Shown here: positions 1 to 50,002 of the stretch, one piece after another
Numbering within the stretch: the first letter of the stretch is position 1
Layout of the letters: each line of letters begins with the position of its first letter
Origin: Polyangiales bacterium
GTDB taxonomy: Bacteria > Myxococcota_A > Polyangia > Polyangiales > Ga0077539
Reading direction: 5' to 3'
Length of the DNA: 64,000 nucleotides
Assembly (NCBI GenBank): GCA_044229975.1
Contig: JBGARZ010000001.1
Location: 640,001 to 704,000, forward strand
Translations under genes and position numbers: made by a program
Notes under the pieces: generated by a model
What the model saw: the letters and a program-made list of their open reading frames with translations, nothing else
Told to the model about the DNA's origin: nothing
Databases searched by the model: none

Positions 1-338
1 AGTTCGTAGATGGCCGGGTGCACGAAGGGCTCGCCGCCCGAAAACGACACCACCTCGACGCCCACCGCGACGGCCTCGTCGAGCGCGCGCTTGCAGACCT
101 CCTTCTCCATGAAGAGCGTCTCGGAGGGCCGACGACACATCTGACAGGTGAGGTTGCAGTACTCGCTCAGCGCGATGTCCATGCGCGCGTACGACGTGAA
201 CAGAACATCCTTCCCGCACGCCGGACACGCCTCGCGCTCCAGCGCCTCGCGGCCCGACATCGTGTGCGTCACCTTCGTCCCGCACGAGCACGCGCGGGTC
301 TTGGTGGCGGTGGTCGACGCGCTTGGGGTAGCGCTCAC
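1..338 (-). CDS. Radical SAM protein with N-terminal Cys-rich extension (5' part only; runs off window edge)
   Basis: Not in the ORF track; my translation from GTG at 338: MSATPS...RACSCGTK...REACPACGKD...SEYCNLTCQMCRRP...VSFSGGEPFVHP. Has CxxxCxxC and GGEP. GTGA overlap with the upstream stop. Confidence 0.9.
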   Translation of the reverse strand, partial: MSATPSASTTATKTRACSCGTKVTHTMSGREALEREACPACGKDVLFTSYARMDIALSEYCNLTCQMCRRPSETLFMEKEVCKRALDEAVAVGVEVVSFSGGEPFVHPAIYE

Positions 339-1354
339 AGCGCGGCCTCGGCGAGCTCCGGCGACGCGGCGACGTGCGCGAAGGTCTCGACGTCCGAGCA
401 GGCCGCGAGGCACCCCGGGCAGCGCTCGGTGAGGGCGAGCACCTGCAACTGCTTGTGGTGCCGCGAGTGCCAGATGTCGCGGATGCTGTCGTTGTAGACG
501 TTGCCCAGGCGGTCGTTGTCCTGGCGCATGAAGAAGCAGGGGTAGACGTCGCCCGTGTAGTTCACGAGGAGAAACTTCGACGGCAGGTAGCAGCCGCCCG
601 GTGGAATGGGCCGCTTGCCGTCGATGAGGTAGTCGGGAATCACCCCGAACATCGCCTCGGTGAAGATCTTCACGCCGCGCTCGCGGGCATGCTCGCGCAA
701 GAACTCCAACCGGCGAATGAGCTCAGCGCGCTGCGGGCGCAGGAGCGAGAAGCGGTTGAGGTCCTTCTCGGGGCCAGAGATCTCCATCTGGAACGGCTGG
801 AACGACACCTCGCCCACGCCGAGCTCGGCCGCGAGATCGACGAGCGCCGTGAGGTGCGGCAGCGTCTCGCGCAGGATCACCCCCGACAGCCCCACCCGCA
901 CGCCGCGCGCGATGGCCTTGCGCACGGTGGCGACGCACTTGTCGTAGACGCCTTCGCCGCGCAGGTCGTCCTGCACTTCGCGCGGGCCGTCGATGGAGAC
1001 GTGGAGCTGCACCGACGGGCACTTCACCAGGCGGTCGAAGTGGGCGTCGGTGAGCATCGTCCCGTTGGTGACGATCTCCTGCATCGTGTAGCCGAGCGCG
1101 TGGGCGTACTCGACGATGTCGAGGAAGTCCTTGCGCATGAACGACTCGGCCCCGCACGGAACGAACGTCCGCGCACCAAGGGCGTAGGCGTCGTCGAGGA
1201 GCTTCTTGGCGAGGTCGAGCGGCACGCCGTGCTCGCGGATCTCCCACACGCTGCACATCTTGCACTGGAGGTTGCAGTACACGGTGAGCTCGACGGCGAG
1301 CTGATCGAGGGGGCGGGTGAGAACGCGTGCCGGGAGCAATGGTGCGAAGGACAT
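335..1354 (-). CDS. Radical SAM protein with SPASM/twitch domain
   Basis: CNLQCKMC, TNG, SIDG, then C-terminal GCYLP...GDVYPC...LGN...CPGC. Start placed at ATG 1354 after GGAG. The GGE motif reads CGAE. Confidence 0.9.
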   Translation of the reverse strand: MSFAPLLPARVLTRPLDQLAVELTVYCNLQCKMCSVWEIREHGVPLDLAKKLLDDAYALGARTFVPCGAESFMRKDFLDIVEYAHALGYTMQEIVTNGTMLTDAHFDRLVKCPSVQLHVSIDGPREVQDDLRGEGVYDKCVATVRKAIARGVRVGLSGVILRETLPHLTALVDLAAELGVGEVSFQPFQMEISGPEKDLNRFSLLRPQRAELIRRLEFLREHARERGVKIFTEAMFGVIPDYLIDGKRPIPPGGCYLPSKFLLVNYTGDVYPCFFMRQDNDRLGNVYNDSIRDIWHSRHHKQLQVLALTERCPGCLAACSDVETFAHVAASPELAEAAL

Positions 1355-1355
1355 C

Positions 1356-2306
1356 TCAGTCTCCAACCGCGCTCGCGGTGTTGTCGCTCGTCGAAGCCGC
1401 GCGGGACTCGCGCTCGCGGTCGCGCCGGCACCACGCGAGCACGAACTCGACGTCGTTGGCGTAGCCGTTTTTCACCCACGCGCCGCGCGCTTCGTCGCGC
1501 ACGAACCACCGCACGTCCTGCCGCACGAGGGCGGCGAGGGCGCGGTCGTGGGGGTACTTGTCCATGAAGTAGACCGAGTTGCGCACGTAGCTGTCGTAGG
1601 TGGGCGCGAGCTGCCGCACCTCGCAGCGAAACGGGTCGCGCGGCTTCGGGTCTTCGAGGTGCAACGCGCGGGCGGTGGGCGCCGCGACGACCTCGTAGCC
1701 CCGGGCGTGGAGCTGGTAGCCGTACTCGATGTCCTCCATGCCCCAGCCGACAAACCCCGAGTCGAAGCGCGGGAGCGAGGCCGACAGCGGCACCGAGAAG
1801 TTGCACGAGTACACGAAGAACCAGGGCGTCGCGTGCGCGGTGACGAGCGCCCCGTCGGCGCCGAGCACCTCGGTGCGGTCGTCGGGCTCGGACACCACGA
1901 TCTCGTCCCAGGTCGGCCGCTCGCGGTCGAACGCGAAGGTGCGATGGCGGTACCCGATGGCGACGCGCGGCGTGCTCGATGCGGCGTGGGCGCGGAGGTG
2001 CGAGGACACGAAGTCGGGCGCGACCAGCACGTCGTCGTCGAGGAAGATCACCACGTCGCCGATGGCGCGGGCGAGGCCCATGTTGCGCGCCTGCCCCGCG
2101 CGGAAGCCGCGGTTCTCCTGATGGCAGTACACGAGCGGGAGCGCGTCTGCGAACGAACGGGCCACGGCCGCGGTGTCGTCGGACGATCCGTCGTCGCAGA
2201 CGACCACGCGGGCGAGCGCGTCGCCGGTCTGCCCCGCGAGACAGCGCAACAGGCGCCCCAGGTGCGCCGAGCGGTTGAAGGTCGGGATGACCACCGTCGC
2301 CTTCAT
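1356..2306 (-). CDS. Family 2 glycosyltransferase
   Basis: VVIPTFNR, VCDDGSSD, ARNMG, FLDDD, GWGMEDIEYGY. Alternative start at 2339. Confidence 0.9.
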   Translation of the reverse strand: MKATVVIPTFNRSAHLGRLLRCLAGQTGDALARVVVCDDGSSDDTAAVARSFADALPLVYCHQENRGFRAGQARNMGLARAIGDVVIFLDDDVLVAPDFVSSHLRAHAASSTPRVAIGYRHRTFAFDRERPTWDEIVVSEPDDRTEVLGADGALVTAHATPWFFVYSCNFSVPLSASLPRFDSGFVGWGMEDIEYGYQLHARGYEVVAAPTARALHLEDPKPRDPFRCEVRQLAPTYDSYVRNSVYFMDKYPHDRALAALVRQDVRWFVRDEARGAWVKNGYANDVEFVLAWCRRDRERESRAASTSDNTASAVGD

Positions 2307-2417
2307 CCCACCGCCTCCGCTCGCCTGACCGTCTTCCATTGGGGTTCGTAGGTGCCGGTGGCCCACCGTCGCCAGCAGCGGCGGCGTTTGTATCACAACC
2401 CCGGTGGTCGTTCGCGG

Positions 2418-4586
2418 CTACGGTCTGACCAGCACCACCGTCGCCCCACTGCCTGCGACGGCCGCCTCCGCGACCGCGAGGTTGCCTTCCCCCACGACGG
2501 CCACCTCGTCGACGCGAACGTCCTCCATGGCGAGCCGCTTGAGGGTCTCGGCCAGCGCCGTCACCGTCTCATCGGCGACGATCACCCGCGCCGTGCGACG
2601 AACGCCCGCCTCCTTCAGCGCCGCGAAGCCCCGCTCGAAGCGCGCAAACGCCTCGGGCCGACGGGTGGCCCGCGCGAAGGTCTCGTGGTCGAAGCCGTAG
2701 ACCTCCACCGTGACCTGATCGAGCCCTGCCTCGCGCGCGGCCTGCGCCAGCGCTCCGTCGCCAAACGGAACGGCCGTCGTCTGCACCGTCGCCCACCGCA
2801 CGCCCGCGCGCCGCGCCTCGCGCAGCAGCGTGAGGAAGCCGGGGTGCTCCGCGGGTTCGCCACCGAGGATGTAGATCTGCGTCGCGCCCACCTTGCGGAC
2901 GTATTCGAGGCGGTCGAGCACCTCGCGCGTCGACATGCCCCCGGGCTGCACCCGGTGCAGCGCGCGGTGAAACGGGACGTCGAGTGACGAAGCGCCACCC
3001 ACCTCGACGCCCACGCACGAGGGTCGCCCGCAGGTCTCGTCGACGTCCGAGAGCGACTGCGCATGGAAGCGCTCGATGACCGGGTCGCCTGGGTGGAGCG
3101 ACCGCAAGCGATCGAGGTTGGTGAGGTATCCCGCGAAGCGCTCGCGCGTCGGTGACGGGTGGCGGAAGGGGTTGCGGGGCGGTCCTTCGGTGGGGTCGAC
3201 GAGGTGGTAGCCGACGGCGAAGCGACCGAAGACCCAGGTGGCGCCGGCGCGGTGCAGTCGATACCCGAGGTCGATGTCTTCGAGGCCCCAGCCCGTGAAG
3301 TCCTGCGCGAACCCGCCGATCTCCGTGAGCAGCGCGCGAGGCAGCGACAGGTTGCCCGTGTACGCGAGGCGCCACGGCTCGGCGAGCCAGTCGATGTTGT
3401 CGAGGCATCCACGCAGCGTGGGCTCGCGCGAGCGATCGGGAATCACCGCCAGCGCTCCGTCGGGGTCGTCGACACCGCGCAGGTCGTCGAGCGTGTGGAC
3501 GAAGCCCGCGTCGTGGAGGTTGTAGCCGGAGAGGTAGCCCAGCACGACGGCGCGCGGCGCGCGGCGATGAACCCAGTCGAGGGCCCATAGGTAGTCGCGG
3601 CCCACCACCACGTCGGCATCGAGGAAGGCCAGCGTGTCGAAGCGTGCTTCCGCCGCGCCTCGCTGCCGCGCGCGCCCCGCGCCGAAGACCCCGCGCTCGC
3701 CCGCATCGGAGACGAGCCGCACGTTGGCGGGTGCGCCCGCGAGCGCCACGGAGAGATCATCGCGCGATCCGTCGTCGACGACGAGCACCTCGAAGCGGTC
3801 GTCGGGGTAGCTCTGCGCGCCCAGACGTCGCACCACTTCGGCGAGAATCTCCACGCGATCACACGCCGGGATCACCACCGAGATGGCCACCGGTGGACCA
3901 TCGAGCGGACGCACCAGGCCGAGCGCCTCCTGCCCATCGAGTCTCGGGATGGCCAGCGCGTCGCCGTCCCAGCGCAGCGTGTCGGAGACGGTGAAGGCAG
4001 CTCGATAGCCAGCGCGTCGCACGGCCTCGCGTGCGGCGGGGGGTGCCTCGCCGTAGGGGTACGCGAAGAGGGCGACGTCGACGCCGAGCTCGCGCTGCAT
4101 CACCTCGCGGGAGCGGGCGCACTCCTCGTCGAGGCGGGCGGCGTACGCGGCGGCGTCTTCGTCGTAGAGGCGCCAGCTCATGCGGGGGTGCGTGACGGTG
4201 TGGGAGCCGAGGGTCCAACCGAGATCGCGCAGGGCGCGGAGCTCGTCCCAGGAGAGAAACTCATCGCTGGTCCCGACGCTCCCGGTCGGCACGAAGAGTG
4301 TCGCGGGGACGTCGAGCGAGCGCAGCAAGGGCGCGGCGTGGGTGAGCACCGAGCGCTGGGCGTCGTCGAAGGCGAGGGCGTAGCGGTCGGCGGAGAGCGG
4401 CGCTCGGAGGTACTCGTCGAGCGCGGCGGGACGGCGGCCCTCGACGGCGAAGCGCTCCACGGCGGCGCGGAGCTGCGCGGGCGTCACCGCGAGGCGACGG
4501 CCGGACGAGGCGGGTTCGACGTAGTGGAGACAGAGGTTGAGCGCGGTGTTCATGGCGACTGCGGAGGGGGCGGACGATGCCGCCAT
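2418..4586 (-). CDS. Fusion: NodB-type polysaccharide deacetylase + GT2 glycosyltransferase + degenerate radical-SAM barrel
   Basis: Deacetylase: AFDDA, GSHTVTH, FAYPYG. GT2: SVVIPA, VVDDGS, FLDAD, GWGLEDIDLGY. C-terminal ILGGEP...QTT...VTVEVYG has no CxxxCxxC. TGATG overlap with the RCC1 gene. Confidence 0.85.
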   Translation of the reverse strand: MAASSAPSAVAMNTALNLCLHYVEPASSGRRLAVTPAQLRAAVERFAVEGRRPAALDEYLRAPLSADRYALAFDDAQRSVLTHAAPLLRSLDVPATLFVPTGSVGTSDEFLSWDELRALRDLGWTLGSHTVTHPRMSWRLYDEDAAAYAARLDEECARSREVMQRELGVDVALFAYPYGEAPPAAREAVRRAGYRAAFTVSDTLRWDGDALAIPRLDGQEALGLVRPLDGPPVAISVVIPACDRVEILAEVVRRLGAQSYPDDRFEVLVVDDGSRDDLSVALAGAPANVRLVSDAGERGVFGAGRARQRGAAEARFDTLAFLDADVVVGRDYLWALDWVHRRAPRAVVLGYLSGYNLHDAGFVHTLDDLRGVDDPDGALAVIPDRSREPTLRGCLDNIDWLAEPWRLAYTGNLSLPRALLTEIGGFAQDFTGWGLEDIDLGYRLHRAGATWVFGRFAVGYHLVDPTEGPPRNPFRHPSPTRERFAGYLTNLDRLRSLHPGDPVIERFHAQSLSDVDETCGRPSCVGVEVGGASSLDVPFHRALHRVQPGGMSTREVLDRLEYVRKVGATQIYILGGEPAEHPGFLTLLREARRAGVRWATVQTTAVPFGDGALAQAAREAGLDQVTVEVYGFDHETFARATRRPEAFARFERGFAALKEAGVRRTARVIVADETVTALAETLKRLAMEDVRVDEVAVVGEGNLAVAEAAVAGSGATVVLVRP

Positions 4587-5743
4587 CACCACGCCGGTGT
4601 CACGGGGGAGTGAGACCTCCCGCCCAGGGTGCCGTTGCCGAGCGCGCCGTACACGTTGCTTCCCCAGCACCGGACCGAGCGATCGCGCAGCAACGCGCAG
4701 GCGAAGCCCTCCGCCGCGACCAGCGTGTCCACGTCGGCACCGAGCTCCACCAGCGTCTCGCGGGGGATCACCTGCTCGTCGACGTCGCCCAGCTGGAGCT
4801 GCCGGGTATCGTTGCGCCCCGCCGCAACCCAACGCCCATCGCGGCCGTGCGCGAAGGTGGAGCCGCCGCCCGCGAACACCTGCGTGACGTCGCGTGCGAA
4901 GTCCGAGCGCGTCGCTCGGAAGGCGTCCGCCACGTTGCCCACCATGAGCTGACCGTACTCGTTGGCCCCCCAGCACCAGAGCACCGACGCGCCGTCGACC
5001 GCGCACGCGTGCTCGCTGCCGCTGGACAACCCGACCGCCCCGGCGAGCCCGTCGACCTCGTTGATGCCGCGGTCGTCGACCGCCGTCACCAGGCCGCGCT
5101 GCCCGCGCTCGTTGCGACCGAAGCACGACACCCGACCGTCTTCCCGCAGCGCGCAGAACCCGTCACGCAGCGCGCCGACATCGCGCACTCGCGGCAGCCC
5201 CGGGAAGGGCTCCGTCGCTGCACCATGGCCCTCCCAGCAGACGACCGCGCCCGTCTCGCGGAGCGCGCACGCCTGGCCCGCACCCACGGCGATCTGCCGT
5301 GCGTCGACGAGACCCGCAACCGTGGTCGGTCCACCGGGAGTGACCTTTCCCGCCGAGGCGTCGGCGAGCCCCCAGCACTGCACGACACCGTCGGCGCGGC
5401 GACCGCAGGTGCGGCCCCAGCCCGCCGTCACCGCGACCGCCGTGACGCCCTCCACCCGCCGCGGTCGGGCGATGGCACTGTCGACGAGGTCGGGCGCCGA
5501 CTCGCCGCGGAGGTTGGACCCCCAGCACCAGACCGCGTGGGCCTCGTCGACGGCGCACACGTGCCTGCCCGACGCCGAGAGTTGCACGATGCGCGGCGCA
5601 CACCCGCATTCCGCCGCGTCGGCGCGCGCGGCGGGGGCGTCGACGGAGGCGTCACCCGCGAGCACCGGGAGCTGCGCGCACGCCGCGACAGTCGCCGCCC
5701 AACCGACGACGGCGAGGCGGAGCGGGCTCGGCCGACGCGACAT
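4586..5743 (-). CDS. RCC1/BLIP-II repeat lipoprotein
   Basis: Lipobox VAAC; repeated H/T-C-A...V-x-CWGxN-xxGQL units. Confidence 0.88.
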   Translation of the reverse strand: MSRRPSPLRLAVVGWAATVAACAQLPVLAGDASVDAPAARADAAECGCAPRIVQLSASGRHVCAVDEAHAVWCWGSNLRGESAPDLVDSAIARPRRVEGVTAVAVTAGWGRTCGRRADGVVQCWGLADASAGKVTPGGPTTVAGLVDARQIAVGAGQACALRETGAVVCWEGHGAATEPFPGLPRVRDVGALRDGFCALREDGRVSCFGRNERGQRGLVTAVDDRGINEVDGLAGAVGLSSGSEHACAVDGASVLWCWGANEYGQLMVGNVADAFRATRSDFARDVTQVFAGGGSTFAHGRDGRWVAAGRNDTRQLQLGDVDEQVIPRETLVELGADVDTLVAAEGFACALLRDRSVRCWGSNVYGALGNGTLGGRSHSPVTPAW

Positions 5744-6544: not shown

Positions 6545-8563
6545 ATGGATGACGCCGGCACGCTCCCTCCCGGCACCGTGCTCGGCGGCGAGTACGAGAT
6601 CGTGCGCGAGCTGGCGCGCGGCGGCATGGGCGCCCTCTTCGTCGCCCGGCACCGCGGCTCGGACAAGCTCCGCGCCGTCAAGACGATGCATCGGAAGTAC
6701 GTCCCCGATGACATGATGCGCGCCCGCTTCGCCCGCGAGGCGAGGGTGAGCGCGCAGATCGAGAGCGACCACGTCGTCGAGGTGTTCGGCGCCGGCGTCG
6801 ACGACGCAACGGGCGTCCCGTGGATGGCCATGGAACTCCTCGACGGCGAAGACCTCTCGCACCTCATCGATCGCCGCGGCGCGATGGGGGCCGACGAGAC
6901 GGCGACGGTCATGGCGCAGCTCGGTCACTGCCTCGGCGCCGCCCATCGGGTGGGCATCGTTCACCGCGACCTGAAGGCCGCCAACGTCTTCCTCGCGGCG
7001 TCCCGTCGGCAGGGCGCGCCCTTCGTCGCGAAGGTGCTCGACTTCGGCATCGCGAAATTCCTCCACGTCGCCACCACGAGCGCGACGACCAGCGCCATCG
7101 GCTCGCCCTTGTGGATGGCGCCCGAGCAGACCAACCCCGAGTCGCCCATCTCGCCCGCGACGGACGTGTGGTCCATGGGGTTGCTGGCGTTCTTCCTGCT
7201 CACGGGGAAGTGCTTCTGGCTCACGCCCACGCACCCCAACGCGAGCATCGCCGCGCTGCTCGGCGAGCTGCTGATGTTGCCCATCCCCTCGGCGTCGTCG
7301 CGGGCCATCGCGCTTGGTGCGACGGGGCGCATCCCGCCGGGCTTCGACGAGTGGTTCGCCCGGTGTCTCTCGCGAGATCCCGCGCAGCGCTTCGCCGACG
7401 CCAACGCCGCCATCCCCCCGCTGCTCGCGGTGCTCCAGGCCGCCGCGCCCGTCGTCGGCGCCGCGGCCCCGGTGCCGGTCGCGCAGGCCGCGCACTCGGC
7501 GAAGGCGATGCTGAGCGCCACGCAGATGCTCCCGCAGACGCCGGCTCCGCCGACCAGCCCCAACCTCCGCGTCAACGCGCCCGCGACGGTGGCGATGCCC
7601 GTCTCCGCGCTGCCGGGTCACACCACCGGATCGCTCGGGATGCCCTCGTCCCCCGCGCCGCGAGCGATGACCGCGCAGCCGATGACGTTCACGCAAGGGG
7701 TGCCGCGCCCCGAGGCGCCGTCGCGCAGTCCGCGGTCGAGCGCCGCCATCGTCGGCGGCGTGGCCGTCGTGACCATCGCCCTCGCCGCGGTGGGCGTCTG
7801 GGCCTTCCAGAAGCGGAGCGACGATCATCGCAGCGCACCAACGGTCGCCGCCCCGACGCTCGCGCGTCCGGCGCCGGTCGGTCCGCTGCTCGCTGCCGCG
7901 CCGAAGCCTGCGCCGCTGCTGCCTGCTGCACCGATCGCGGCACCCACTGCGACACCGATGATGGCGCCCGGCACGGAGACCGAACCGCGCCGCAGCCTCC
8001 GCGCCAACGAACGCCCGCCGATGCCCGGAGCGCCCACCTACGCCGACGTGCCGGTGTTCCAGATACCGACCACCGGCCCGACGCCAGCGCCGATGCCGAC
8101 GCCCGCGCCAGCCCCTGCGCCGATGCCGACCCCTGCGCCTACGCCAGTCGTCGCGCCGACTCCCGCTCCCGCTCCCGCTCCCGCTCCCGCTCCCGCTCCC
8201 GCTCCCGCTCCCGCTCCCGCTCCCGCTCCCGCGCCGACGCCTGAGCCGACGCCTGCTCCCACACCGACGCCTGCTCCCGCGCCGACGCCCGCTCCTGCTC
8301 CCGCGCCGACGCCGACGCCGACGCCGACGCCCGCGCCCCCACCGGCAGAACCTCCCGCCGACGAGCGCGACGAGCACGGGCGCATCGTGACCTCATCGAC
8401 CTCGCTCCACGGCGGGCAGCGCATCCGCATCCGCTGGGGTGGAGGCTGGTACCCAGGGCGGGTCGTTCACCTCAACGACAACGGAACCGTCTACGTGCAC
8501 TACGACGGATGGAGCGACGGCCAGGACGCCAACGTCTCGCGCTCGGAGTTGCGCCTCCCCTGA
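6545..8563 (+). CDS. Membrane Ser/Thr protein kinase with Pro/Ala stalk and C-terminal Tudor/Agenet-like domain
   Basis: [25 protein letters not shown]; one TM helix; (PA)n linker; C-terminus [10 protein letters not shown]...YVHYDGW. Confidence 0.9.
8165..8230 (+). repeat. (GCTCCC)x11 perfect coding microsatellite (Ala-Pro repeat)
   Basis: Directly visible; flanked by degenerate PTPAPA repeats. Confidence 0.95.
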
Positions 8564-10404: not shown

Positions 10405-11232
10405 TCACTGCATCATCGGGCGCACGCTCACGCGGCGCTTGCGGATGTCATCGAGCGCCTCGGTCACCTTCGCAGTGTCCTTCGCGTCGGGCCGCGCGTT
10501 GAGGTAGGCGCGCAGGTCCGACGACGCCGCCTCCAGCGCGCCCAGCGCCAGCGCGTGCATCCCGCGATCGCGCCTCGGCTCCGGCGCGCCCGTGAGGTCG
10601 ACGAGACGATCGCACACCACCAGCGCCTTCGCGTGGTCGCCGCGGCGCTCGTGGGTGTTCTTGAGGTTCACCAGCATGCGAACCGCGACGGCGCGCGCAC
10701 CCACCACGGCGGTGTGCTCGTCCTGCAACGCGACGGTCTCGCCGGTCACGCGCTGGAGCAGCTTCGTGAGGTCGTCCATGTGGAGCACCCGCGCCCGGAA
10801 GAACGGGTCGACGTACACCCCCGACGGACCACCGAGGCGCACGAGGAAGTGCCCCGGAAAGCCAACGCCCTCGACGTCCATCCCCGCGCGCCGACCCAGC
10901 GCCGCGAGCAGCACCGCGAGCGTGATGGGGATGCCCCTCCGCCGCGCGATCACCATGGGCAGGTAGCTGTTGCGCGGGTCGTCGTAGGTCTCCTCATCGC
11001 CCGCGAACCCAAGCTCGTCGTAGACGTAGGTCCCGAGCAGCGCGGCCTGGTCGATGGGCCGGTGCAGCAGCGCCCCGCGGCTCTTGAGCGGCGCCGCGAG
11101 CTCATCGAGCGCGAGGGCCTCCCGCTCGGGATCGATGTCGGGCAGCGCGTCGCACGCGATGGCCAGCGCCACGTCCTCCAACGGCGGCTCCGGGTCGATG
11201 GCAAACAGCTCGATCACGTCTCTCGCTCGCAT
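10405..11232 (-). CDS. SirB1/transglutaminase-like core + TPR protein
   Basis: YDDPRNSYL...RRRGIPITL...GVGFPGHFLVR...YVDPF; RDRG TPR tail. Confidence 0.88.
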   Translation of the reverse strand: MRARDVIELFAIDPEPPLEDVALAIACDALPDIDPEREALALDELAAPLKSRGALLHRPIDQAALLGTYVYDELGFAGDEETYDDPRNSYLPMVIARRRGIPITLAVLLAALGRRAGMDVEGVGFPGHFLVRLGGPSGVYVDPFFRARVLHMDDLTKLLQRVTGETVALQDEHTAVVGARAVAVRMLVNLKNTHERRGDHAKALVVCDRLVDLTGAPEPRRDRGMHALALGALEAASSDLRAYLNARPDAKDTAKVTEALDDIRKRRVSVRPMMQ

Positions 11233-31520: not shown

Positions 31521-33827
31521 ATGAACACAACCCGCCGCCTCGGCCTTCTGGCGCTCGTCGTCTCCGGCGCCACCGCCCTGCCCGCGTCCGTCCTCGCGCA
31601 GCCCGTGCCCGCCAACCCGCCGCCCGCCGACCCGCCGCCCGCCGACCCGCCTCCGCCCGCGAGCCCGCCTCCGCCCGCCGACCCCGCGTCGCCGGACACG
31701 GGCGAAGTCCTCCCCAGCCAGGAGTACTATGTGCGGGGCCGGCGCACGCTCGACCAGGTCCCCGGCAGCCACACGCTCATCCGCCGCGAGGACATCCAGC
31801 AGCTCGCCCCGCAGAGCGGCGGCGACGTCCTGCGCACCGTCCCCGGCGTCAACGTCGTGAGCGAAGACCCGATGGGCCTGCGGCTCAACATCAGCATCCG
31901 CGGCCTCGACCCCAACCGCTCGCGCAAGGTGCTCGTCCTCGAAGACGGGATGCCCGTCTCGCTCAACCCCTACGGCTCCCCCGAGCTCTATTACACGCCG
32001 CCCATCGAGCGCATGGACCGCGTCGAGGTCGTCCGCGGCAGCGGCCAGATTCTCTGGGGTCCGCAGACCATCGGCGGCGTCATCAACTACATCACGCGCG
32101 AGCCGCCGCGCCGCCCCACGGCGGGCGTCGACCTCCGCTACGGAACCTACGGCTACCTCCTCGCGCAAGCCTTCGCGGGCGCCACGCAAGGCCCCATCGG
32201 GTGGCGCCTCGACGTGATCCACCGCCGCTTCGACGGGCCGCGCAACCTCAACCTCGCGCTCACGGACATCGCCGGTCGGCTGCGGCTCCAGATCTCCCCG
32301 CGCTCGATCGTCCAGCTCAAGCTCAACTACTACGACGAGTCGTCGAACGCGACGTACCTCGGCGTCACGTCGCCGCAGTTCGCCCTCGACCCGACCATCA
32401 ACGTGGCCGGCAACGACCACTTCCAGATCCGCCGCTACGCGCTCGCGCTCATGCACCAGTTCACCGCGTCGCCGACGGTGATGCTGCGCACCAACGTCTA
32501 CGCCTACCAGACCAACCGCGCGTGGCGCCGCCAGGAGTACGACCGCAGCGACACGGGCGCGGACTACGAGCGCGTGTGCGACCCGATGGGCCGCTGCGGC
32601 GCGCCCGGCGCCTCCGGCATCGCCCCCACCAACAACGGCGGGAGCGTCTTCCTGCGTCGCACCGCGGCCACCAACGACCGCTCCTTCGACGTCTTCGGCG
32701 TCGAGCCCCGCCTCACCTGGAACTGGACCCGCGGCACCGTCTCCGGCGAGCTCACGACCCTCGTGCGCTTCCACTACGAGAGCGCCAACGACGCGCGCTT
32801 CATCTCGTCGTTTCCGACCGGGCGCTCGGGGGTGCCCATCGCCGACGAGATCCGCAACGGCTACGCGCTCGCCGCCGCGGTGCAGCATCGCTTCGGCTTC
32901 AACGACCGCTTCTTCGTCACGCCGGGCGTGCGCTTCGAGGGCTTCTGGAGCAACCGACGCGTGACGCGCGAGTCGTTCATCGACCCGATGGGTCAGACGG
33001 CCTACCGCGACGTCGACGTCTTCGGCAGCTCATCGAGCGCGGCCCTCATCCCGGGCCTCGGCCTCTCCTACCGCTTCGGCTCCGCGCTCACGATCTTCGC
33101 GGGCGTGCACCGCGGGTACGCCCCGCCGCGCACCAAGGACGCCGTCTCCCCCGCGGGCGCCAACCTCCAGCTCGACCCCGAGCTCTCCTGGAACACCGAG
33201 CTCGGCTTCCGCACGCGCCTCGGCCGCTGGCTCAACGCCGAGGTCGCGGCCTTCCACCTGGAGTTCGAGAACCAGATCATCCCCCCGAGCGAGTCGGGCG
33301 GCGCGGTCTCGGCCGCGGGCTTCAACACCGGCCACAGCCGCCACGTCGGCCTCGAAGGCAGCCTCACCTTCGACGTCGCACCCGTGTTTCAGCGCGGCGC
33401 GTCGACCTTCTCGCTGCCGCTGACGGTCAACTACACCTATCTCCCCGTCGCGGACTTCGTGGGCGGGCTCTTCGGCGGCAACCGCCTGCCGTACGCGCCC
33501 GAGCACATGCTCTTCGCGCAGCTCCGCTTCGTGCACCGCGCGGGCTTCTCCGCGCAGGTGAGCGCCACCTACGTGGCCAGCCAGTTCGCCGACAAGGAGA
33601 ACACCGTCGCCCAGTCCGTCGATGGCGTGGTGGGACGCCTCGACGGCTACCTCACCATCGACGCTCGCGTCGGCTACACGATCCGCGTCCCCAACCTCAC
33701 GGTCTACGTCGCGGGCCGAAACCTCACCGACCAGATCTACGTGGCCAATCGCGCCCCGCAAGGCATCCAGCCCGCCGGGTGGCGACAGGTCTTCGTCGGC
33801 CTGGAGTGGTCCTGGCCCCGTTCGTAG
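31521..33827 (+). CDS. TonB-dependent receptor, FecA-like
   Basis: Signal peptide; plug VLRTVPGV...NISIRG...VLEDG...VEVVRGSG...GGVINYIT; LDPELSWNTELG; NRLPYAP; RNLTD. Confidence 0.95.
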   Translation: MNTTRRLGLLALVVSGATALPASVLAQPVPANPPPADPPPADPPPPASPPPPADPASPDTGEVLPSQEYYVRGRRTLDQVPGSHTLIRREDIQQLAPQSGGDVLRTVPGVNVVSEDPMGLRLNISIRGLDPNRSRKVLVLEDGMPVSLNPYGSPELYYTPPIERMDRVEVVRGSGQILWGPQTIGGVINYITREPPRRPTAGVDLRYGTYGYLLAQAFAGATQGPIGWRLDVIHRRFDGPRNLNLALTDIAGRLRLQISPRSIVQLKLNYYDESSNATYLGVTSPQFALDPTINVAGNDHFQIRRYALALMHQFTASPTVMLRTNVYAYQTNRAWRRQEYDRSDTGADYERVCDPMGRCGAPGASGIAPTNNGGSVFLRRTAATNDRSFDVFGVEPRLTWNWTRGTVSGELTTLVRFHYESANDARFISSFPTGRSGVPIADEIRNGYALAAAVQHRFGFNDRFFVTPGVRFEGFWSNRRVTRESFIDPMGQTAYRDVDVFGSSSSAALIPGLGLSYRFGSALTIFAGVHRGYAPPRTKDAVSPAGANLQLDPELSWNTELGFRTRLGRWLNAEVAAFHLEFENQIIPPSESGGAVSAAGFNTGHSRHVGLEGSLTFDVAPVFQRGASTFSLPLTVNYTYLPVADFVGGLFGGNRLPYAPEHMLFAQLRFVHRAGFSAQVSATYVASQFADKENTVAQSVDGVVGRLDGYLTIDARVGYTIRVPNLTVYVAGRNLTDQIYVANRAPQGIQPAGWRQVFVGLEWSWPRS

Positions 33828-39785: not shown

Positions 39786-40217
39786 ATGCACCCGACGCAA
39801 GCGCCGATGGAGGATGGGAAGGTCGTCGAGGTGTTCTTCGACGGCGAGTGTCCGCTGTGCACGCGCGAGGTCGACATGCTCCGTCGGCTCGATCGTCACG
39901 GGCGCGTGCAGTTTACCGACATCGCCGCGCCCGACTTCGTGGCGGCGGTGACGCCCGAGGAGCACGCCGACTTCATGGCGCGCATCCGCGGTCGCCTGCC
40001 CGATGGGACGATGCTCGAAGGCGTCGAGGTGTTTCGTCGGCTGTACGCCGCCGTGGGGTTCGGTCCGATCGTCGCGGTGACGCGGGCGCCCGGCGTGGCG
40101 CAGCTCCTCGACCTTGGCTACCGGGCGTTTGCACGCAACCGGCTGCGGCTCACCGGGCGTTGCTCCCCCGACGGAGTCTGCGCCGTGCCAGTGGCCGAGA
40201 AGGCGCACCACGGATAG
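39786..40217 (+). CDS. DCC1-like thiol-disulfide oxidoreductase (DUF393)
   Basis: FFDGECPLC...GYRAFARNR. Confidence 0.9.
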
Positions 40218-40254
40218 CGGCGCCATCGACGACGCGTCGTCGTACCGTCGCCCG

Positions 40255-41295
40255 ATGCTCCCACCGTCCCGCGCGCTGCTCGCCGCCGTCCTCGCGCCGA
40301 CCCTGGCCGCCTGCCACCGCACGACCAACGCACCGCGCCCCACCGTCGCCGTCGCTGTCGCCGCGCCTCCGCCCGCGACCGGGCCTGCGCCCGCGCCCGC
40401 GGTCGATGTGTGCGAGCGCGTCGCCGAAGCACAACGCACGCTGCGAGCCGCCATCCCGACGCCGCCCGAAGGAACCGAAATCCCCGATGACTTCGCGGCC
40501 TGCATCCCGACGCCGCACGGCGCGTGGTCGCTGGAGTTCGACTCGCTACGCGTCACCGACAGCGGCTCGTGGCGCGGGCACTGGTCCGTCGCGCACTACG
40601 ATGGTGCGGGTCGACGTGTCGCGATCGCGCTCACGCAGCCGGGCGACGAGCGCGCCGAAGACCTCACCCCCGCGGCCGACAACCTCGACGTGAGCCCGCC
40701 CTACTCCGCGCTCCGCCCCAACACCGAGACCTTCGACTACGACGGCGACGGCGAACCCGAGCTCGCGCTCGTCCTCACCCTCGGACAGAACGAAGCCGAA
40801 GACCCGGTGCGCGGCCGCGTCTGGACCTTCCGCGACGGCGCCATCGCCGCCTTCGCGCCCGCGATCAACGTCGAGGTGACCAACATCGAGGACGTCGACC
40901 GCGACGGGCGACCCGACCTGCTCACGCCCATCCCCTTCAGCACCACCGCGGAGGCACCGGGATCGGGCTTCACCTACGCGATCGACGGTCCCATGTGGGT
41001 GTTTCACAGCCTCGCGGGCGGGGCCTTCTCGTCGACCGACACCGTCGCCGTCGGCGCCGCGCGCACCGCCTGCCCGAGCGCCCCCGGCCGCGCCCTCCGC
41101 ACGCCCACCGAGGTGGCCTGCGCGCGCGCCTGGAGCCTCCCGATCGCCGCCGTCCGGGCCGCGATCACCCGCGGCTGTCGGCGCCCGGTCAGTGGTGCCA
41201 GCGGTGACCCGTGCACCGAGGTCGAAGCGATGAACACCTTCGCCCCGCTCGACGCGCCCACCCACCTCGGCCCCGCGACGGCCGGAACACCCTGA
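40255..41295 (+). CDS. Lipoprotein with FG-GAP/VCBS-like motifs
   Basis: LAAC lipobox; DYDGDGEPEL, DVDRDGRPDL. Confidence 0.75.
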   Translation: MLPPSRALLAAVLAPTLAACHRTTNAPRPTVAVAVAAPPPATGPAPAPAVDVCERVAEAQRTLRAAIPTPPEGTEIPDDFAACIPTPHGAWSLEFDSLRVTDSGSWRGHWSVAHYDGAGRRVAIALTQPGDERAEDLTPAADNLDVSPPYSALRPNTETFDYDGDGEPELALVLTLGQNEAEDPVRGRVWTFRDGAIAAFAPAINVEVTNIEDVDRDGRPDLLTPIPFSTTAEAPGSGFTYAIDGPMWVFHSLAGGAFSSTDTVAVGAARTACPSAPGRALRTPTEVACARAWSLPIAAVRAAITRGCRRPVSGASGDPCTEVEAMNTFAPLDAPTHLGPATAGTP

Positions 41296-43580
41296 TGCCG
41301 CGCACACCCCCATCACGCTCGTGCGCCGCGTGCTTCGCCGCCGCGATGCTGCTCACCACGGGGTCGGCGGTCGCCCAGATGCGCGCCATCCCGCCGGGCC
41401 AGGAGGCGCTCGTCGCCACGATGCTCGGAAGCCGCGCGACCTTCCCTGCGGGCTGCCGTCTTACCGGCGCCGAGATCCGCGCGACGGCCATCCGCGCGCG
41501 CTACGCCTGCGACGCCGGGCGCTCTCCGACGCTGGAGCTGCGCGACGTCGAGGGCTCACCCGAGGGATCGCTCCGCGCGGGCCCCTTCGCGATCACCACC
41601 CCCGACGGTCCGGCGCCCGACGGGCTCACCGACGCCGTCGCCGCGCTCGTCCGCGCCAACGCCGGCGCGTGGCGCTGGCAGACCCTCGGCGGCCGAACCC
41701 CTCCCCCGGCGATCAGCACCTTCGATGGGCGCCTCTTCAATGGGCCGCTCGCCGTCCTCCTGCTGGTGCTCCTCGCGGTGGCGGTCGGTCGCAGGCGCGC
41801 GCCTCGTGACCTCGCGGCCGCGCTCGCGGTGATGGCCGTCACTGCGCTCGTGCTGCGGGCTCGCCACGTCGGCGTCCCGCTCCACCCCGACACCGTGCGC
41901 GACATGCTGTATGCGCGGGACTGCGTCGACGCCCGCGCCTGCCACGCGCTCGGCCCCCCCGCGAGCTTCGCCGGGCTCACGCACGGAACCTCCTGGCTAC
42001 GCCTGTTGGAGTTCGTGGGTCGCCGGGGCTTCGGCCCCGACGGTGCGCGCACCGCGGTCGACCTCCTCGCCACCCTCGCCGCGGGCGTCGTCTTCCTCGC
42101 CGCCCGACGTCGCGCTGCCACCGGCCTCGCCGCGCTCGCCGGCGTGGCCTTCGTCGTCACCAGCGCCCAGGCCTCCGGCCGCCCGCTGCTCTGGAACCCC
42201 TCCGCCCTCTCCCTCCCCACCGCGATCTTCTTCGCGCTGGCCTCCTCCGCGGCCGCCACCGGCGCCACCGCCACCTGGGTCGCCGCGGCGGCGGCGCTCG
42301 CCTTCTCGGTCGACCTCCACGTCGCCAGCGGCGCGCTCATCCCGCCCTTCGTCGCCGCGCTCGTCGCGTGGAGCCACACTCCCCGCCGCGCCATCCCTTT
42401 GGCGGTGGTGAGCCTGCTCGGCACCCTCGCGCTCCTCTCCCACGTGACCCTCGCGCGCAACCTCGCGGTCGCCGGGAGGCACTGGGAGTTTCTGCTCGCC
42501 CTCGCGCTCTCCATCGCGGTCGGTGCCGCCGCGCGCCGCCGCGCCCTCGCGCTCGCCGAAGGCCCACGCGTCGCCCTCGCGCTCACGACCCTCGTCGTCC
42601 CGTTTGCGCTCGCGCTCGCCCTCGCCTCGGCGCCGTCGCGCCCCTTCGCCAACCGCTACCTCCTCCCCATGCTGCCGGGTCTGGCGCTGCTCGTAGCGAT
42701 CGCCCTCGACGCCTTCGCAGCGCGCGTCGCAGCCATCACCCGTCGCCCCGCGGCGCAATCCCCCATCGCGTGGGCGCTCGCGGCGGCCACCATCGCGGTC
42801 GTCCTCACGCGCCCCGGTGCTCCGGTGCCGCGCGGCTGGCAACTGGGCGAACTGCGCCCGCTGGCGACGCACCTCGACGCGCGCGGCTGGCGCTGGCCCG
42901 ACCTCTACGTCCACCTCCAGGGCCCCGGAAACTGGGCGCTGCTCTCGGGCCTCGGGGTCTTCCAGCGAGACGTCAGGACGAGCGGTCGCGACGACGACGT
43001 GGTGATCGTCCGTGCGCCGCGCGCGAGCCTGCCGCCGAGCATTCCGCCGCGCTGGGACGTGGCGACCATCGGACCTGGGATGGTGGCCGTGGTGCGCTCG
43101 CTGCCGTCCTTCATTGACCGGAGCCGCGTGCGCGCGTGCCTCGCTCATGACTGCGTCGAGGTCGACCCCGCGGCCGAGGCGCACGAGCCTGGCATGGGGC
43201 CGTTCATCCGGCGCGCGTACCTGTCGTGGTCGGCCGCGGCGCGACGCTTCGCTCGCGGTGGACCAGCGCGCGATGGGGCGGGGCCCAGCTATGAGTTCGC
43301 GGTGCGCGTTCCGGGTGGAGGGGCGCCGCATGAGTTTGCGCTGTGCGCCTCGGCGGGGTGGCGCATCGAGGGCGTCGCGGGTGACCTCACGGCGACCGTG
43401 GCGGGCCCGCACCGCGTCGTGATCGACGGAGCGAGCGCCGGTCGCGGGCGAATCATCCTCTCACTGGAATCGGGCGCCAACACGAACGGATGGCCGCCCG
43501 AGATGCTGGAGACCGACGACGACGATGACGGCCTCCGGCGATTGATCCGCGCGACGGACGATCGTCGCTGCCGCTGGTGA
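41295..43580 (+). CDS. Polytopic membrane protein, possibly GT-C/ArnT-like
   Basis: TGATG coupling; about 11 TM helices; HPDTVRD, GPPAS, LWNPS, RYLLP motifs. Confidence 0.6.
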   Translation: MPRTPPSRSCAACFAAAMLLTTGSAVAQMRAIPPGQEALVATMLGSRATFPAGCRLTGAEIRATAIRARYACDAGRSPTLELRDVEGSPEGSLRAGPFAITTPDGPAPDGLTDAVAALVRANAGAWRWQTLGGRTPPPAISTFDGRLFNGPLAVLLLVLLAVAVGRRRAPRDLAAALAVMAVTALVLRARHVGVPLHPDTVRDMLYARDCVDARACHALGPPASFAGLTHGTSWLRLLEFVGRRGFGPDGARTAVDLLATLAAGVVFLAARRRAATGLAALAGVAFVVTSAQASGRPLLWNPSALSLPTAIFFALASSAAATGATATWVAAAAALAFSVDLHVASGALIPPFVAALVAWSHTPRRAIPLAVVSLLGTLALLSHVTLARNLAVAGRHWEFLLALALSIAVGAAARRRALALAEGPRVALALTTLVVPFALALALASAPSRPFANRYLLPMLPGLALLVAIALDAFAARVAAITRRPAAQSPIAWALAAATIAVVLTRPGAPVPRGWQLGELRPLATHLDARGWRWPDLYVHLQGPGNWALLSGLGVFQRDVRTSGRDDDVVIVRAPRASLPPSIPPRWDVATIGPGMVAVVRSLPSFIDRSRVRACLAHDCVEVDPAAEAHEPGMGPFIRRAYLSWSAAARRFARGGPARDGAGPSYEFAVRVPGGGAPHEFALCASAGWRIEGVAGDLTATVAGPHRVVIDGASAGRGRIILSLESGANTNGWPPEMLETDDDDDGLRRLIRATDDRRCRW

Positions 43581-43736
43581 GCTCGTCGGCCCGGCGCTCG
43601 AAGTAGTGCGCGCCATCGAGGTCGGAACCATGGTTCGCCGCGCGCCGCGATGGGGCAGACCTGGCGGATTGCTCGTCGCTTCGGGTGCGCCAAGAACGCC
43701 CAAGCCCGGACTCCGCTCGCGCCGTATGATCGCCCG

Positions 43737-44573
43737 GTGCCCCACCTCAACGAGCAGCGTCGCGGCAGTCGGGTGGTGGTCCACGTGCCCACGTCGTTGC
43801 GCGGCGTGGCGGTGATTCGCACGACCAACAGCGGCGAGCTCCTGCGCGCGCTCCCCGAGAGCTTCTCCAGCGTCCTGCAGATCGGCGGTCGCGCGGAGTG
43901 GACGATGCGCGGTGCGGCGTGGTCGAGCGCACCCGGGATGGTCAGCGTGAAGATCCCGGGCGAGGTCTACGCCGAGCGCAAGCGGGACGGCGTCGGCCGT
44001 TGCCAGGTCGTGAAGTTCGACGACTCGCTGGTCGAGGATGTGCGCTTTGCTCTCGGCCGCCACCTCGGCGCACCAGCGGACCACGCGATGGACGGCCGCG
44101 ACCCGCGCGTCGCCGCGCTCGCGACGTTGCACAGGCGCCTCCTCGACGACGATGCAACGCCGGCGGCATTGGAGCAGGGCCTCTGCGAAGCGCTCACGGC
44201 GCTCGTCGAGCTGACGAGCGTGGAGCGCGGTGCTCGCCGCATCCCGAGCGCATCGACCGCGGCCGTGGCCCGCGCTCGCGCGATGCTCGAAGAGCGACTC
44301 ACGGAGGCGGTCACGCTCGACGAGCTGGCAGCGCACGCGCGCCTCGACAAGTACCGTCTGTGCCGGGCCTTTCGCGACGAGCTCGGCCTGCCGCCACACG
44401 CGTACGTCACGCACCGTCGCATCGGTCGCGCGCAGGGTCTGCTCGCCCGTGGGCTCTCGCAGGGCGAGGTCGCGGCGCGCGTCGGGTTGTACGACCAGAG
44501 CCAGTTGCACCGGCACTTCAAGCGCATCGTCGGGGTCACGCCGGGCGCGTATGCGCGCGCCGTTCGCGGGTGA
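43737..44573 (+). CDS. AraC-family transcriptional regulator
   Basis: TLDELA...LCRAFR...GLPPHAY...GLYDQSQLHRHFKRIVGVTPGAY; TATGAT 6 nt before GTG. Confidence 0.93.
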   Translation: MPHLNEQRRGSRVVVHVPTSLRGVAVIRTTNSGELLRALPESFSSVLQIGGRAEWTMRGAAWSSAPGMVSVKIPGEVYAERKRDGVGRCQVVKFDDSLVEDVRFALGRHLGAPADHAMDGRDPRVAALATLHRRLLDDDATPAALEQGLCEALTALVELTSVERGARRIPSASTAAVARARAMLEERLTEAVTLDELAAHARLDKYRLCRAFRDELGLPPHAYVTHRRIGRAQGLLARGLSQGEVAARVGLYDQSQLHRHFKRIVGVTPGAYARAVRG

Positions 44574-44594
44574 CGTCGGTAGACTCGGCGCACC

Positions 44595-44882
44595 ATGCCG
44601 AAGGCCCACCATGCGAGCGAGGTCCGCGCCTTTACCGACATCCCCAACGTGGGCAAGGCGATGACGCGGGACTTCCAACTGCTCGGCTTCCAGACGCCGC
44701 AAGCGCTCGCGGGTCAGGACGCCTTCAAGCTCTACCAGCGGCTCTCGAAGCTCACCGCGACGCGGCAGGACCCGTGCGTGCTCGACACCTTCATGGCGGT
44801 GGTCGACTTCATGGACGGCGGAACCCCGAAGGCGTGGTGGGAGTTCACCGAAGCGCGCAAGAAGCGGCACCCGGACCTGTGA
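44595..44882 (+). CDS. Helix-hairpin-helix Cdd1/mitomycin-resistance-like protein
   Basis: DIPNVGKA...L.GQD...LY...QDPCVLDTF...WWEF. Confidence 0.88.
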   Translation: MPKAHHASEVRAFTDIPNVGKAMTRDFQLLGFQTPQALAGQDAFKLYQRLSKLTATRQDPCVLDTFMAVVDFMDGGTPKAWWEFTEARKKRHPDL

Positions 44883-44930
44883 AGGCACACGTCTGGAAGG
44901 CTCTCGTGAGCTGACGTACGATCACGGGTG

Positions 44931-45806
44931 ATGGACCCGAAACCGCCCGCGGGAAGTGTCTGGACCGCCCCCGGTCGTAGGACGGGACCGTTCGGTGAGC
45001 CTCTGGAAGACCAGCGACCGCGCGTCGATGAGCGGCTCGTCGAGCCGGAGTCGCGTTACGAGATCGTGCGCGGCGAGCGCGTCGAGGCGTCGCCGTCGTT
45101 GCCCGATCACGCTGACCCGCACATCCAGCTCGACGCCGTGGTCTTCGCGCACCTGCGCCCCGGCTGGCGCGGCGCCACCGACCTGTTGACCCGCGCCCAG
45201 GAGCAGTCGGACTTTGCCACCGACACCAGTGTGCGGCGCGAGGGCGTCGACCCGTCGACGGGCGCCCGCTACCTGGAGGAAATCGCCTTCGAAGTGGTCA
45301 ACCCCCAGCGCGCGGGCGACCTCACCTCGAAGGCGCAGGACCTCGTCGCGCGAGGCGTCCGTCGGGTGTTCGCGCTGTGGCCGCGGCAGAAGCGCGTCTG
45401 CGAGTGGCGCCATGGTCTGTGGGAGGTGCTTCCGATCGCGGGCGCCATCGACGACCCGTGCTTCGCGCGACCGATCCCGGTGCAGGCGCTGCTCGACGCG
45501 TCGAGCGCCGACGACGCGATGGCCGAGGCGCTCCTCGCGCGCGGAAACTCGCGACTCGCCGCCGTCATCGCGGCGGCGGCGCAGACCGGCGAGACACGCG
45601 GAGAGGCACGCGGAGAGGCGCGCGGAGAGGCGCGCGGGCGGGCCGAGGCGTTGTTGATGATGCTGGAGGCGCGCGGGCTTCCCATCGAAGACTCGGCGCG
45701 GGCTCGCATCTTGAGGTGTGATGACCCGACGGTGCTCGCGGCGTGGATCGGCCGCGCCCTGTCGGCGGCGAGCGTCGCCGACGTACTCGCCGACGCCACC
45801 CCCTGA
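44931..45806 (+). CDS. Uma2-family endonuclease-like protein with GEAR repeats and DUF4351-like tail
   Basis: RYEIVRGE...H...FATD...IAFEVV...K...RGVRRV; (GEAR)n; LEARG...L..W..RA. Alternative start GTG 44928. Confidence 0.85.
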   Translation: MDPKPPAGSVWTAPGRRTGPFGEPLEDQRPRVDERLVEPESRYEIVRGERVEASPSLPDHADPHIQLDAVVFAHLRPGWRGATDLLTRAQEQSDFATDTSVRREGVDPSTGARYLEEIAFEVVNPQRAGDLTSKAQDLVARGVRRVFALWPRQKRVCEWRHGLWEVLPIAGAIDDPCFARPIPVQALLDASSADDAMAEALLARGNSRLAAVIAAAAQTGETRGEARGEARGEARGRAEALLMMLEARGLPIEDSARARILRCDDPTVLAAWIGRALSAASVADVLADATP

Positions 45807-46010
45807 TCGAGGGACCCTACCGCGCTGCCCGCGACAGCCTCCCTCACACGCGAGTTGCCCCGTTGCGCGCGCCGCGACGGCCTCCCTCCGCCTACATCCC
45901 CCGCCCATTGCTCGCGGCCCCACTGGATTTCGATCGAGTCGACCGGGACCGCCCCGCGAGACTCCCACCTGCCGCGGCGCCCGATCACGCCCCGCCCCCG
46001 GAACCCGCCG

Positions 46011-46919: not shown

Positions 46920-46941
46920 CCCGGCACCACTGTCTCGGACA

Positions 46942-48213: not shown

Positions 48214-48335
48214 GGGTTGGTAGGGGGAGGAGAAACCAGCGCGGGGTGTGACTTGTCAACGTCGACCGTCAAGACGGGCTTTGCGTCGCGGGGACTACCC
48301 GTTAGTGTCGCTCTCCTCCCGCCCGAATCCACCGC

Positions 48336-48815: not shown

Positions 48816-48819
48816 CCCG

Positions 48820-49857: not shown

Positions 49858-49974
49858 GCGACATGGCTCCGACCGTCGACGTCATGGTCGCGATGAATGC
49901 ACCGCCCCCCAACGGACACCCATCCTCCGGCGACCGAGACGATGACCCACCGGCCCGTCGGCTCGCGCGCAGCG

Positions 49975-50002
49975 TTGACATCTTGGTGATGGTCGGTAGA
50001 GT
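49975..50002 (+). promoter_or_regulatory. Sigma-70-type promoter
   Basis: TTGACA-N16-TAGAGT, followed by AAGGA RBS and the start at 50042. Confidence 0.7.

Follow-up and report, generated by a model that had tools for sequence, protein, structure and literature searches.

Sugar chemistry by BlsE-like radical S-adenosylmethionine (radical-SAM, rSAM) enzymes is familiar from actinomycete antibiotic pathways, and triads of a GT2 glycosyltransferase, a deacetylase and a radical-SAM enzyme occur in the hopanoid (HpnI/HpnK/HpnJ), pactamycin (PtmJ/G/C) and butirosin/neomycin (BtrN/NeoN) systems, in none of which, to our knowledge, a GT-C transferase is used. Another, stepwise logic is that of glycosylphosphatidylinositol (GPI), of the mycobacterial phosphatidylinositol mannosides and lipoarabinomannan (PIM-LAM) and of PpgS-Rv3779, where the action of a cytoplasmic GT4 and a de-N-acetylase is followed by flipping and by GT-C extension from polyprenyl-phosphate sugars; we know of no radical-SAM step in any of these pathways. 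BlsE itself was reportedly later read as a dehydratase. Its substrate is cytosylglucuronic acid (PMC3715490). PMC12041528 describes the streptococcal Pgf system (PgfS, PgfE, PgfM1, PgfM2), in which proteins are O-glycosylated by a GT2, an epimerase and two GT-C enzymes. Here we analyze a group of genes at one end of a 64,000-nucleotide stretch of DNA (the window, positions 640001-704000 of contig C32 in the host genome G000, 71% GC), which an initial annotation had taken for an undescribed sugar-tailoring cluster. We suggest that four of these genes, together with eight co-inherited ones, probably constitute a pathway that glycosylates the cell envelope through a lipid carrier and tailors sugars by radical chemistry.

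The five flagged open reading frames (ORFs) all lie on the minus strand, with a GC content at third codon positions (GC3) of 0.88-0.95. Together with the gene following them and the domains of the fusion protein, they are:

Window 5743-4586, minus strand: RCC1-repeat predicted lipoprotein (P0005).
Window 4589 or 4586 to 2418, minus strand: CE4-GT2a-pseudo-rSAM fusion (P0001, 711-723 amino acids; Pfam PF01522, PF00535, PF02709, PF04055).
Window 3915..4547 (approximate bounds), minus strand: CE4 deacetylase domain of the fusion, with metal triad and N-terminal His intact.
Window 2418..3017 (approximate bounds), minus strand: pseudo-radical-SAM domain of the fusion, with GGEP kept and the cluster motif decayed.
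Window 2306 (or 2339)-1356, minus strand: GT2b (P0002), a soluble GT2 and paralogue of GT2a.
Window 1354-335, minus strand: rSAM1 (P0003), seen by Pfam and an AlphaFold model.
Window 338 to C32:639160, minus strand: rSAM2 (P0004, 392 amino acids), its 5' part in window 1..338 and the rest off-window.
C32:639167-638346, off-window: GH5-like gene (P0006), overlapping rSAM2 by 8 nt.

The ORF calls and Pfam confirmed the five co-oriented genes and their domains as initially annotated, and also the tightness of three of the four junctions: the RCC1 gene and the fusion overlap by 4 nt (GTG start) or 1 nt (ATG start), GT2b and rSAM1 are separated by 1 nt and rSAM1 and rSAM2 overlap by 4 nt, the exception being the gap of 78-111 nt between the fusion and GT2b. 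The cluster does continue past the edge, as had been expected, but beyond the rest of rSAM2 by a single gene, the GH5-like one. No conserved precursor peptide was found. A promoter/terminator scan gave no signal exceeding shuffles. Beyond the GH5-like ORF, just downstream of the cassette, lies an AAA_21 ATPase/DUF3226 pair (L001:10345-12242), possibly a toxin-antitoxin or a defence system, whose ATPase gene has a lower GC3 (0.82).

An rSAM1 scan with one genome per species retrieved 51 loci, 48 of them at an identity of at least 50%. The carriers are mostly metagenome-assembled genomes of Polyangiales/Sandaracinaceae, joined by six Binatia-type genomes, two Bacteroidota and some with a Proteobacteria label; the nearest relative of the host rSAM1 carries a Polyangiales label. 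At the 51 loci, many of them on short contigs, matches of at least 60 bits were obtained for rSAM2 (41), GT2b (34), the glycoside hydrolase (25), the deacetylase (18) and GT2a (18). The conserved unit consists of the fusion, GT2b, rSAM1, rSAM2 and the GH5-like gene. The co-occurrence of these genes in about 40 genomes and the position of both radical-SAM enzymes outside the characterised cofactor families support the idea of an undescribed sugar-tailoring pathway. The fusion is present in 40 of the 48 rSAM1 genomes, and its distribution is patchy (5/61 genomes including the host; 0/8 same-genus relatives). The RCC1 lipoprotein, by contrast, which had been counted as a cluster member, must be taken out of it. 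Only two 26% matches, on the opposite strand, stand beside the cassette at the 51 genome loci, and none at the 33 metagenome loci; a search for close RCC1 orthologues in 5 genomes, run without a positive control, found none. Since no orthologue lies beside the cassette elsewhere, and the host genome has 24 RCC1-like places, the gene, although it overlaps the fusion, is a bystander outside the conserved unit.

The families that recur beside the cassette in other genomes have orthologues in the host genome on three further contigs:

C20:58880-68689 (L054): ABC exporter, GT4, dehydrogenase, YfhO-like GT-C, intact GH5 and methyltransferase.
C11:419989-423295 (L056): PMT-like GT-C, polyprenyl-phosphate-type GT2 and epimerase.
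C27:48829-49917 (L055): SGNH protein.

A twelve-gene set can be defined in this way (the fusion, GT2b, rSAM1, rSAM2, GH5, GT4, dehydrogenase, ABC, polyprenyl-phosphate GT2, epimerase and two GT-C), and its members adjoin one another in G093 and are confined to about 30 kb in G079 and G107; two metagenome loci (L143, L144) carry eight genes co-oriented. Genome-wide profiling covered the 48 rSAM1 genomes, G013 (positive for all profiled genes) and, as negatives, 28 cassette-free relatives taken from 56 fusion-negative genomes; these are larger and mostly more complete genomes, and the fusion's own count of 0/28 among them is circular. Thresholds differ per gene, and the epimerase, methyltransferase and SGNH genes were outside the profiling. 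G075 (L017), a genome flagged as unpublished, is included in the tallies and in alignments A1-A4 but is nowhere the sole basis of a claim. The counts, in rSAM1 genomes and in negatives, are:

rSAM2: 41/48 and 0/28.
GH5: 42/48 and 0/28.
GT4: 38/48 and 0/28.
YfhO-like GT-C: 39/48 and 0/28.
PMT-like GT-C: 37/48 and 0/28.
Polyprenyl-phosphate GT2: 40/48 (three weak) and 1/28 (weak).
Dehydrogenase, typical-member query: 35/48 and 0/28.
ABC exporter, at E 1e-190: 34/48 and 0/28.

For the dehydrogenase, a profile built from the host's divergent copy at 1e-75 found 6/77, hence the choice of a typical member as query. The control HxsB was detected in 28/48 rSAM1 genomes and in 12/28 negatives; thus, the negatives are not merely poor assemblies. 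The misses cluster in the six Binatia-type, the two Bacteroidota and one Tropicimonas genomes. The Binatia-type variant (L028, L031, L038, L039, L046, L050) has no rSAM2, different GT2s, a pentapeptide-repeat gene and GH5-like proteins mostly without the nucleophile, while in the Bacteroidota variant (L040, L041, L080) GT2b is fused to rSAM1, and the fusion gene is preceded in G099 by a cytidylyltransferase and a 2-hydroxyacid dehydrogenase.

Both radical-SAM proteins score above the cut-off of PF04055, and their CxxxCxxC cysteines are invariant (43/43 for rSAM1, 37/37 for rSAM2). They are full-length paralogues (hhalign 99.9%, 24% identity), and an invariant Glu occupies the same region in both (E191 and E223, respectively). 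In rSAM1, which has no N-terminal extension, PxGAE replaces GGEP, and C255/C273/C312/C315 and a fifth cysteine, C319, are invariant; rSAM2 has an N-terminal four-Cys ribbon, CxxxCxxC, GGEP and the invariant C285/C302/C335/C338. About four conserved C-terminal cysteines with one auxiliary cluster are the twitch pattern, and by this pattern both enzymes are assigned to the twitch type, with a predicted auxiliary [4Fe-4S] cluster; Pfam SPASM matches rSAM1, and the four to five C-terminal cysteines fall short of the seven to eight of the two-cluster SPASM set. Neither enzyme nears any NCBIfam cut-off (at most 87 bits versus 265-650 for NirJ/Ahb, PqqE and MftC), which places both outside the cofactor families whose membership would have spoken against a new pathway. 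For TIGR04466 (BlsE), rSAM2 reaches 63.2 bits against a cut-off of 400, and rSAM1 gives no hit among its best 25 matches listed. In the models (pLDDT 88.3 for rSAM1, by AlphaFold, and 87.5 for rSAM2), the structure closest to rSAM1 is BlsE (7vob; Z 27.4, rmsd 2.9, 302 residues aligned), followed by SkfB (Z 25.2) and, more weakly, BtrN (Z 16.3), so that the comparison with BtrN/NeoN-type sugar enzymes initially drawn shifts towards BlsE. BlsE also ranked first in one sequence search, but peptide maturases did so in three others, so that the link with BlsE is a lean, not a proof. The rSAM1 relatives found in the range of 602-2000 amino acids are without exception GT2b-rSAM1 fusions (14/14), and this ties rSAM1 to the product of GT2b. 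A quick rSAM1 tree had an unstable outgroup and was not used for claims of transfer.

The fusion protein combines an IcaB/PgaB-type CE4 deacetylase, GT2a (KfoC/chondroitin-synthase-like, GWGxED) and a degenerate radical-SAM barrel. Its best PDB matches are 2z86 (E 1e-27) and 4wcj, with 3vus also matched for the deacetylase, and the best solved relative of GT2a is chondroitin synthase; the CE4 domain stays below the IcaB and PgaB family cut-offs (44 versus 248 and 42 versus 322 bits) and has neither the export signal nor the PNAG synthase partner of that type. In 14/14 fusion sequences H22, D75, D76, H130, H134, Y177-P178, D324-x-D326 and W434-G-x-E437-D438 are invariant. The CE4 domain thus keeps in all of them its Asp-Asp, His-x3-His, YP and N-terminal His motifs, which we take to have the roles assigned to them in CE4 deacetylases, and is predicted to be active. 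No signal peptide, strong transmembrane or N-terminal hydrophobic segment was found in the fusion, and all window enzymes are without strong transmembrane segments. The third domain lacks CxxxCxxC in all 45 motif reads (two spurious regex matches having been removed, and some reads possibly coming from the same organism), keeps CxxxCxxH in 10 and is truncated in L044/L045; judged from its motif, which decays from CxxxCxxH to nothing, it is a dead radical-SAM barrel. The two GT2 domains share 32% identity over 281 columns and the [DN]PF[RK]...N motif (33/33 GT2b and 15/16 fusion ORFs), and GWGxED...[DN]PF[RK] is restricted, in the host genome, to the fusion and GT2b genes; this is in agreement with the paralogy proposed earlier from their common C-terminal motif. 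Given the GT2b-rSAM1 fusions, GT2a and its dead barrel may be the relic of a second module of this kind.

Among the products of the other contigs, the putative polyprenyl-phosphate GT2 (P0133) has PpgS as its best NCBIfam match, with AglJ and dolichyl-phosphate hexose transferase also far below their cut-offs, and no PDB match at 1e-5. The dehydrogenase (P0127) is closest in the PDB to GDP-mannose dehydrogenase (388 bits versus 214 for UDP-glucose dehydrogenase). Both GT-Cs show about nine hydrophobic segments, the first of them followed by a W-D that is conserved at 90% or more (15 and 22 sequences), in line with the acidic residue after TM1 expected of GT-C transferases, and the copy in L049 has a YfhO match of 43 bits. 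The GH5 profile is nearest to beta-mannanases; the NEP motif, present in most relatives, is lost in P0006, and an intact copy lies at C20:66897-67886. A methyltransferase recurs in 7 loci, a carbamoyltransferase in the G079, G107 and L029 clusters, and SGNH proteins recur as well. In GT4 (L054:6718-7704) the usual E-x7-E motif starts with Gln. The Atlas clusters nearest to GT4 are 94-100% viral; a phage origin was rejected, viral contigs giving relatives at 19-30% identity only. A myo-inositol-1-phosphate synthase (L056:13214-14527) lies 4 kb from the C11 locus and does not recur beside the pathway elsewhere.

From the observed gene content, motifs, co-inheritance, fusions and folds, we infer the reactions, their order and the product as follows. 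The dehydrogenase would supply an NDP-hexuronate (GDP-mannuronate-like) and the epimerase NDP-Gal/GalNAc; the soluble GT4, GT2a and GT2b might then build a short chain on a lipid at the inner membrane face, from which the fused CE4 domain would remove an N-acetyl group. rSAM1, with the GT2b product as its substrate, and rSAM2 would abstract a C-H hydrogen from a sugar, the residue being then dehydrated, decarboxylated or epimerised; by analogy with BlsE, it is possible, although we propose it with reserve, that this chemistry acts specifically on the uronate. The dead barrel behind GT2a would be the vestige of a second GT2-rSAM module. The ABC exporter would flip the product, the two GT-Cs would transfer sugars from polyprenyl-phosphate donors outside the membrane, and the GH5 protein might serve for trimming or recycling, with the methyl-, carbamoyl- and SGNH enzymes as optional extras. 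Secreted proteins or lipoproteins (as in Pgf) and a membrane lipid (with a GPI/PIM-like logic) appear about equally likely as acceptors. Lipid A as an obligatory acceptor is ruled out: LpxC and KdtA were not found in the three carriers tested, G000 (93% complete), G094 and G087, where the controls were detected. The two genes were not found in G001 and G012 either, while G079 has an intact LpxC and G102 and G103 a split one. Loss of lipopolysaccharide has reportedly been described for Sorangium So ce56.

Several findings weigh against such a lipid-carrier pathway. The host GT-Cs fall just under the Pfam cut-offs (25 versus 28.5; 22.3 versus 22.7), the matches of the ABC protein point to no specific flippase, and the recurring neighbour families include neither an initiating phosphoglycosyl transferase nor a GtrA/GtcA-type flippase, for which no genome-wide search was made. 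For rSAM2 the model matches SkfB (Z 24.2) and BlsE (Z 24.0) equally, and the sequence-best solved relatives of the radical-SAM enzymes are mostly the peptide maturases SkfB, CteB and SuiB. The carrier genomes are related, so that their counts are not independent, and no named cultured host of the module was found. Moreover, the window module of five genes is present in the two Bacteroidota, where the thresholds used gave no match to GT4, GT-C, dehydrogenase or ABC, and the six Binatia-type genomes have rSAM1 and GH5 alone; both variants imply that the module can work without the lipid-carrier half.

The Bacteroidota version also fits an unlikely, though not negligible, alternative, according to which the product of the window module is a natural product, a soluble glycoside (blasticidin-, aminoglycoside- or Nod-factor-like): the GT2s would glycosylate a small aglycone, CE4 and the radical-SAM enzymes would tailor the glycoside, and its finishing would fall to methyl- and carbamoyltransferases and its export to the ABC protein. 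The BlsE-like fold of rSAM1, the lack of strong transmembrane segments in the window enzymes, the recurrence of the methyl- and carbamoyltransferases and the patchy distribution of the fusion are in agreement with it. However, once the Bacteroidota, Binatia-type and Tropicimonas genomes are set aside, the two GT-Cs and the polyprenyl-phosphate GT2 track the module in 37-39 of 39 genomes, and the neighbour families include no recurrent aminotransferase, aglycone-supplying enzyme or resistance gene.

The two halves of the gene set are often separated in genomes, and SGNH proteins recur beside them, as one would expect if there were two sub-pathways, the module making an unusual activated (nucleotide- or lipid-linked) monosaccharide with which a three-component system decorates an existing polymer, such as an exopolysaccharide or peptidoglycan. 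YfhO-family enzymes do add single sugars to existing polymers (PMC7389260). Yet three soluble transferases and an ABC exporter exceed what this would need, and the neighbourhoods hold no recurrent polymerase or Wzx/Wzy family; we regard this organization as quite improbable.

The glycosylated peptide listed among the possible products in the initial annotation is very unlikely. The matches with SkfB, CteB and SuiB, the SPASM match of rSAM1 and the exporter would suit maturases of ribosomally synthesised and post-translationally modified peptides, possibly linked to a His-Xaa-Ser system on contig C30; against this, no small ORF (531 intergenic ORFs) is common to more than 3/49 loci, the C-terminal cysteines are only four or five and rSAM1 has no N-terminal extension. 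The link with the His-Xaa-Ser system was rejected, as HxsB, which 20 of the 48 rSAM1 genomes lack and 12 of the 28 negatives have, does not track the cassette. As a separate observation, C30 (150 kb, L057 being 40001-60000) has 28 called ORFs with CxxxCxxC, which include HxsB (125551-126957), sugar enzymes, a deacetylase, a carbamoyltransferase and, at 56045-58234, a fusion of GT2 and rSAM; a second HxsB of the host genome lies at C20:550712. Finally, a place in a cofactor pathway (heme b/d1, PQQ, mycofactocin) with a glycosylated product is hardly credible, since the top NCBIfam names (AhbD, NirJ, MftC and PqqE, with MftF for the GT2s at 62 bits versus 280) stay far under the curated cut-offs and no partner genes recur nearby, so that NirJ/AhbC/AhbD, PqqE and MftC were ruled out.

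The other window genes that we looked at, a Ser/Thr kinase with a long Pro-rich repeat (6545-8563), a transglutaminase-like TPR protein (10408-11232), a TonB-dependent receptor (31521-33824) and an RtcR regulator (61507-63135), were judged ordinary.

If the lipid-carrier pathway is correct, two BlsE-like radical-SAM enzymes work alongside a polyprenyl-phosphate/GT-C envelope system, which would carry that chemistry into cell-surface glycobiology, and new sugars and two new enzyme activities are to be expected. That three unlinked loci are inherited either together or not at all within one family suggests a surface trait acquired or lost in its entirety; we can speculate that this is a phage receptor, a means of kin recognition or an outer-membrane component. 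A more specific version, tentative and rather doubtful as a whole, is that uncultured Polyangiales, some without lipid A genes, make a GPI/PIM-like or protein-O-linked glycan in which tandem GT2-rSAM modules remodel each added sugar, so that an undescribed monosaccharide reaches a surface glycoconjugate via a lipid-linked glycan. A literature search for the combination of such a lipid-carrier system with radical-SAM tailoring, with most subscription and chemistry journals outside its reach, returned nothing relevant. The twelve-gene set, being contiguous in G093, could be synthesised and assayed.

By cut-off, the pathway is a member of none of the known systems compared. It differs from the Arn/Flm modification of lipid A in that LpxC and KdtA were not found in the three carriers. 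With the HpnI/K/J, PtmJ/G/C and BtrN/NeoN triads it shares the sequence of HexNAc transfer, deacetylation and radical remodelling; however, the families are others, with CE4 and twitch-type enzymes here and a Z of only 14-16 for BtrN. The same stepwise logic is seen in GPI, PIM-LAM and PpgS-Rv3779, and PpgS tops the matches of P0133, although with 56 bits versus a cut-off of 370 the likeness to GPI/PIM-LAM is an analogy only. BlsE, with its glucuronyltransferase BlsD, is the closest fold for rSAM1 and a tied one for rSAM2, and here, too, there is a transferase partner and a predicted supply of uronate, whereas the identity is 18-24%, nucleoside pathway genes are absent, PxGAE stands for GGEP in rSAM1 and rSAM2 carries a four-Cys ribbon. 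Finally, the pathway resembles the Pgf and CsbB/GtcA/YfhO systems, as described in PMC12041528 and PMC7389260, in its putative polyprenyl-phosphate-type GT2, its epimerase and its two GT-Cs, one of them YfhO-like. Unlike Pgf and the three-component systems, it belongs to a Gram-negative host, has no GtrA/GtcA flippase among the recurring neighbour families and adds three soluble transferases, a CE4 domain, two radical-SAM enzymes with their cluster motif intact, a dehydrogenase predicted to form a uronate, an ABC protein and a GH5.

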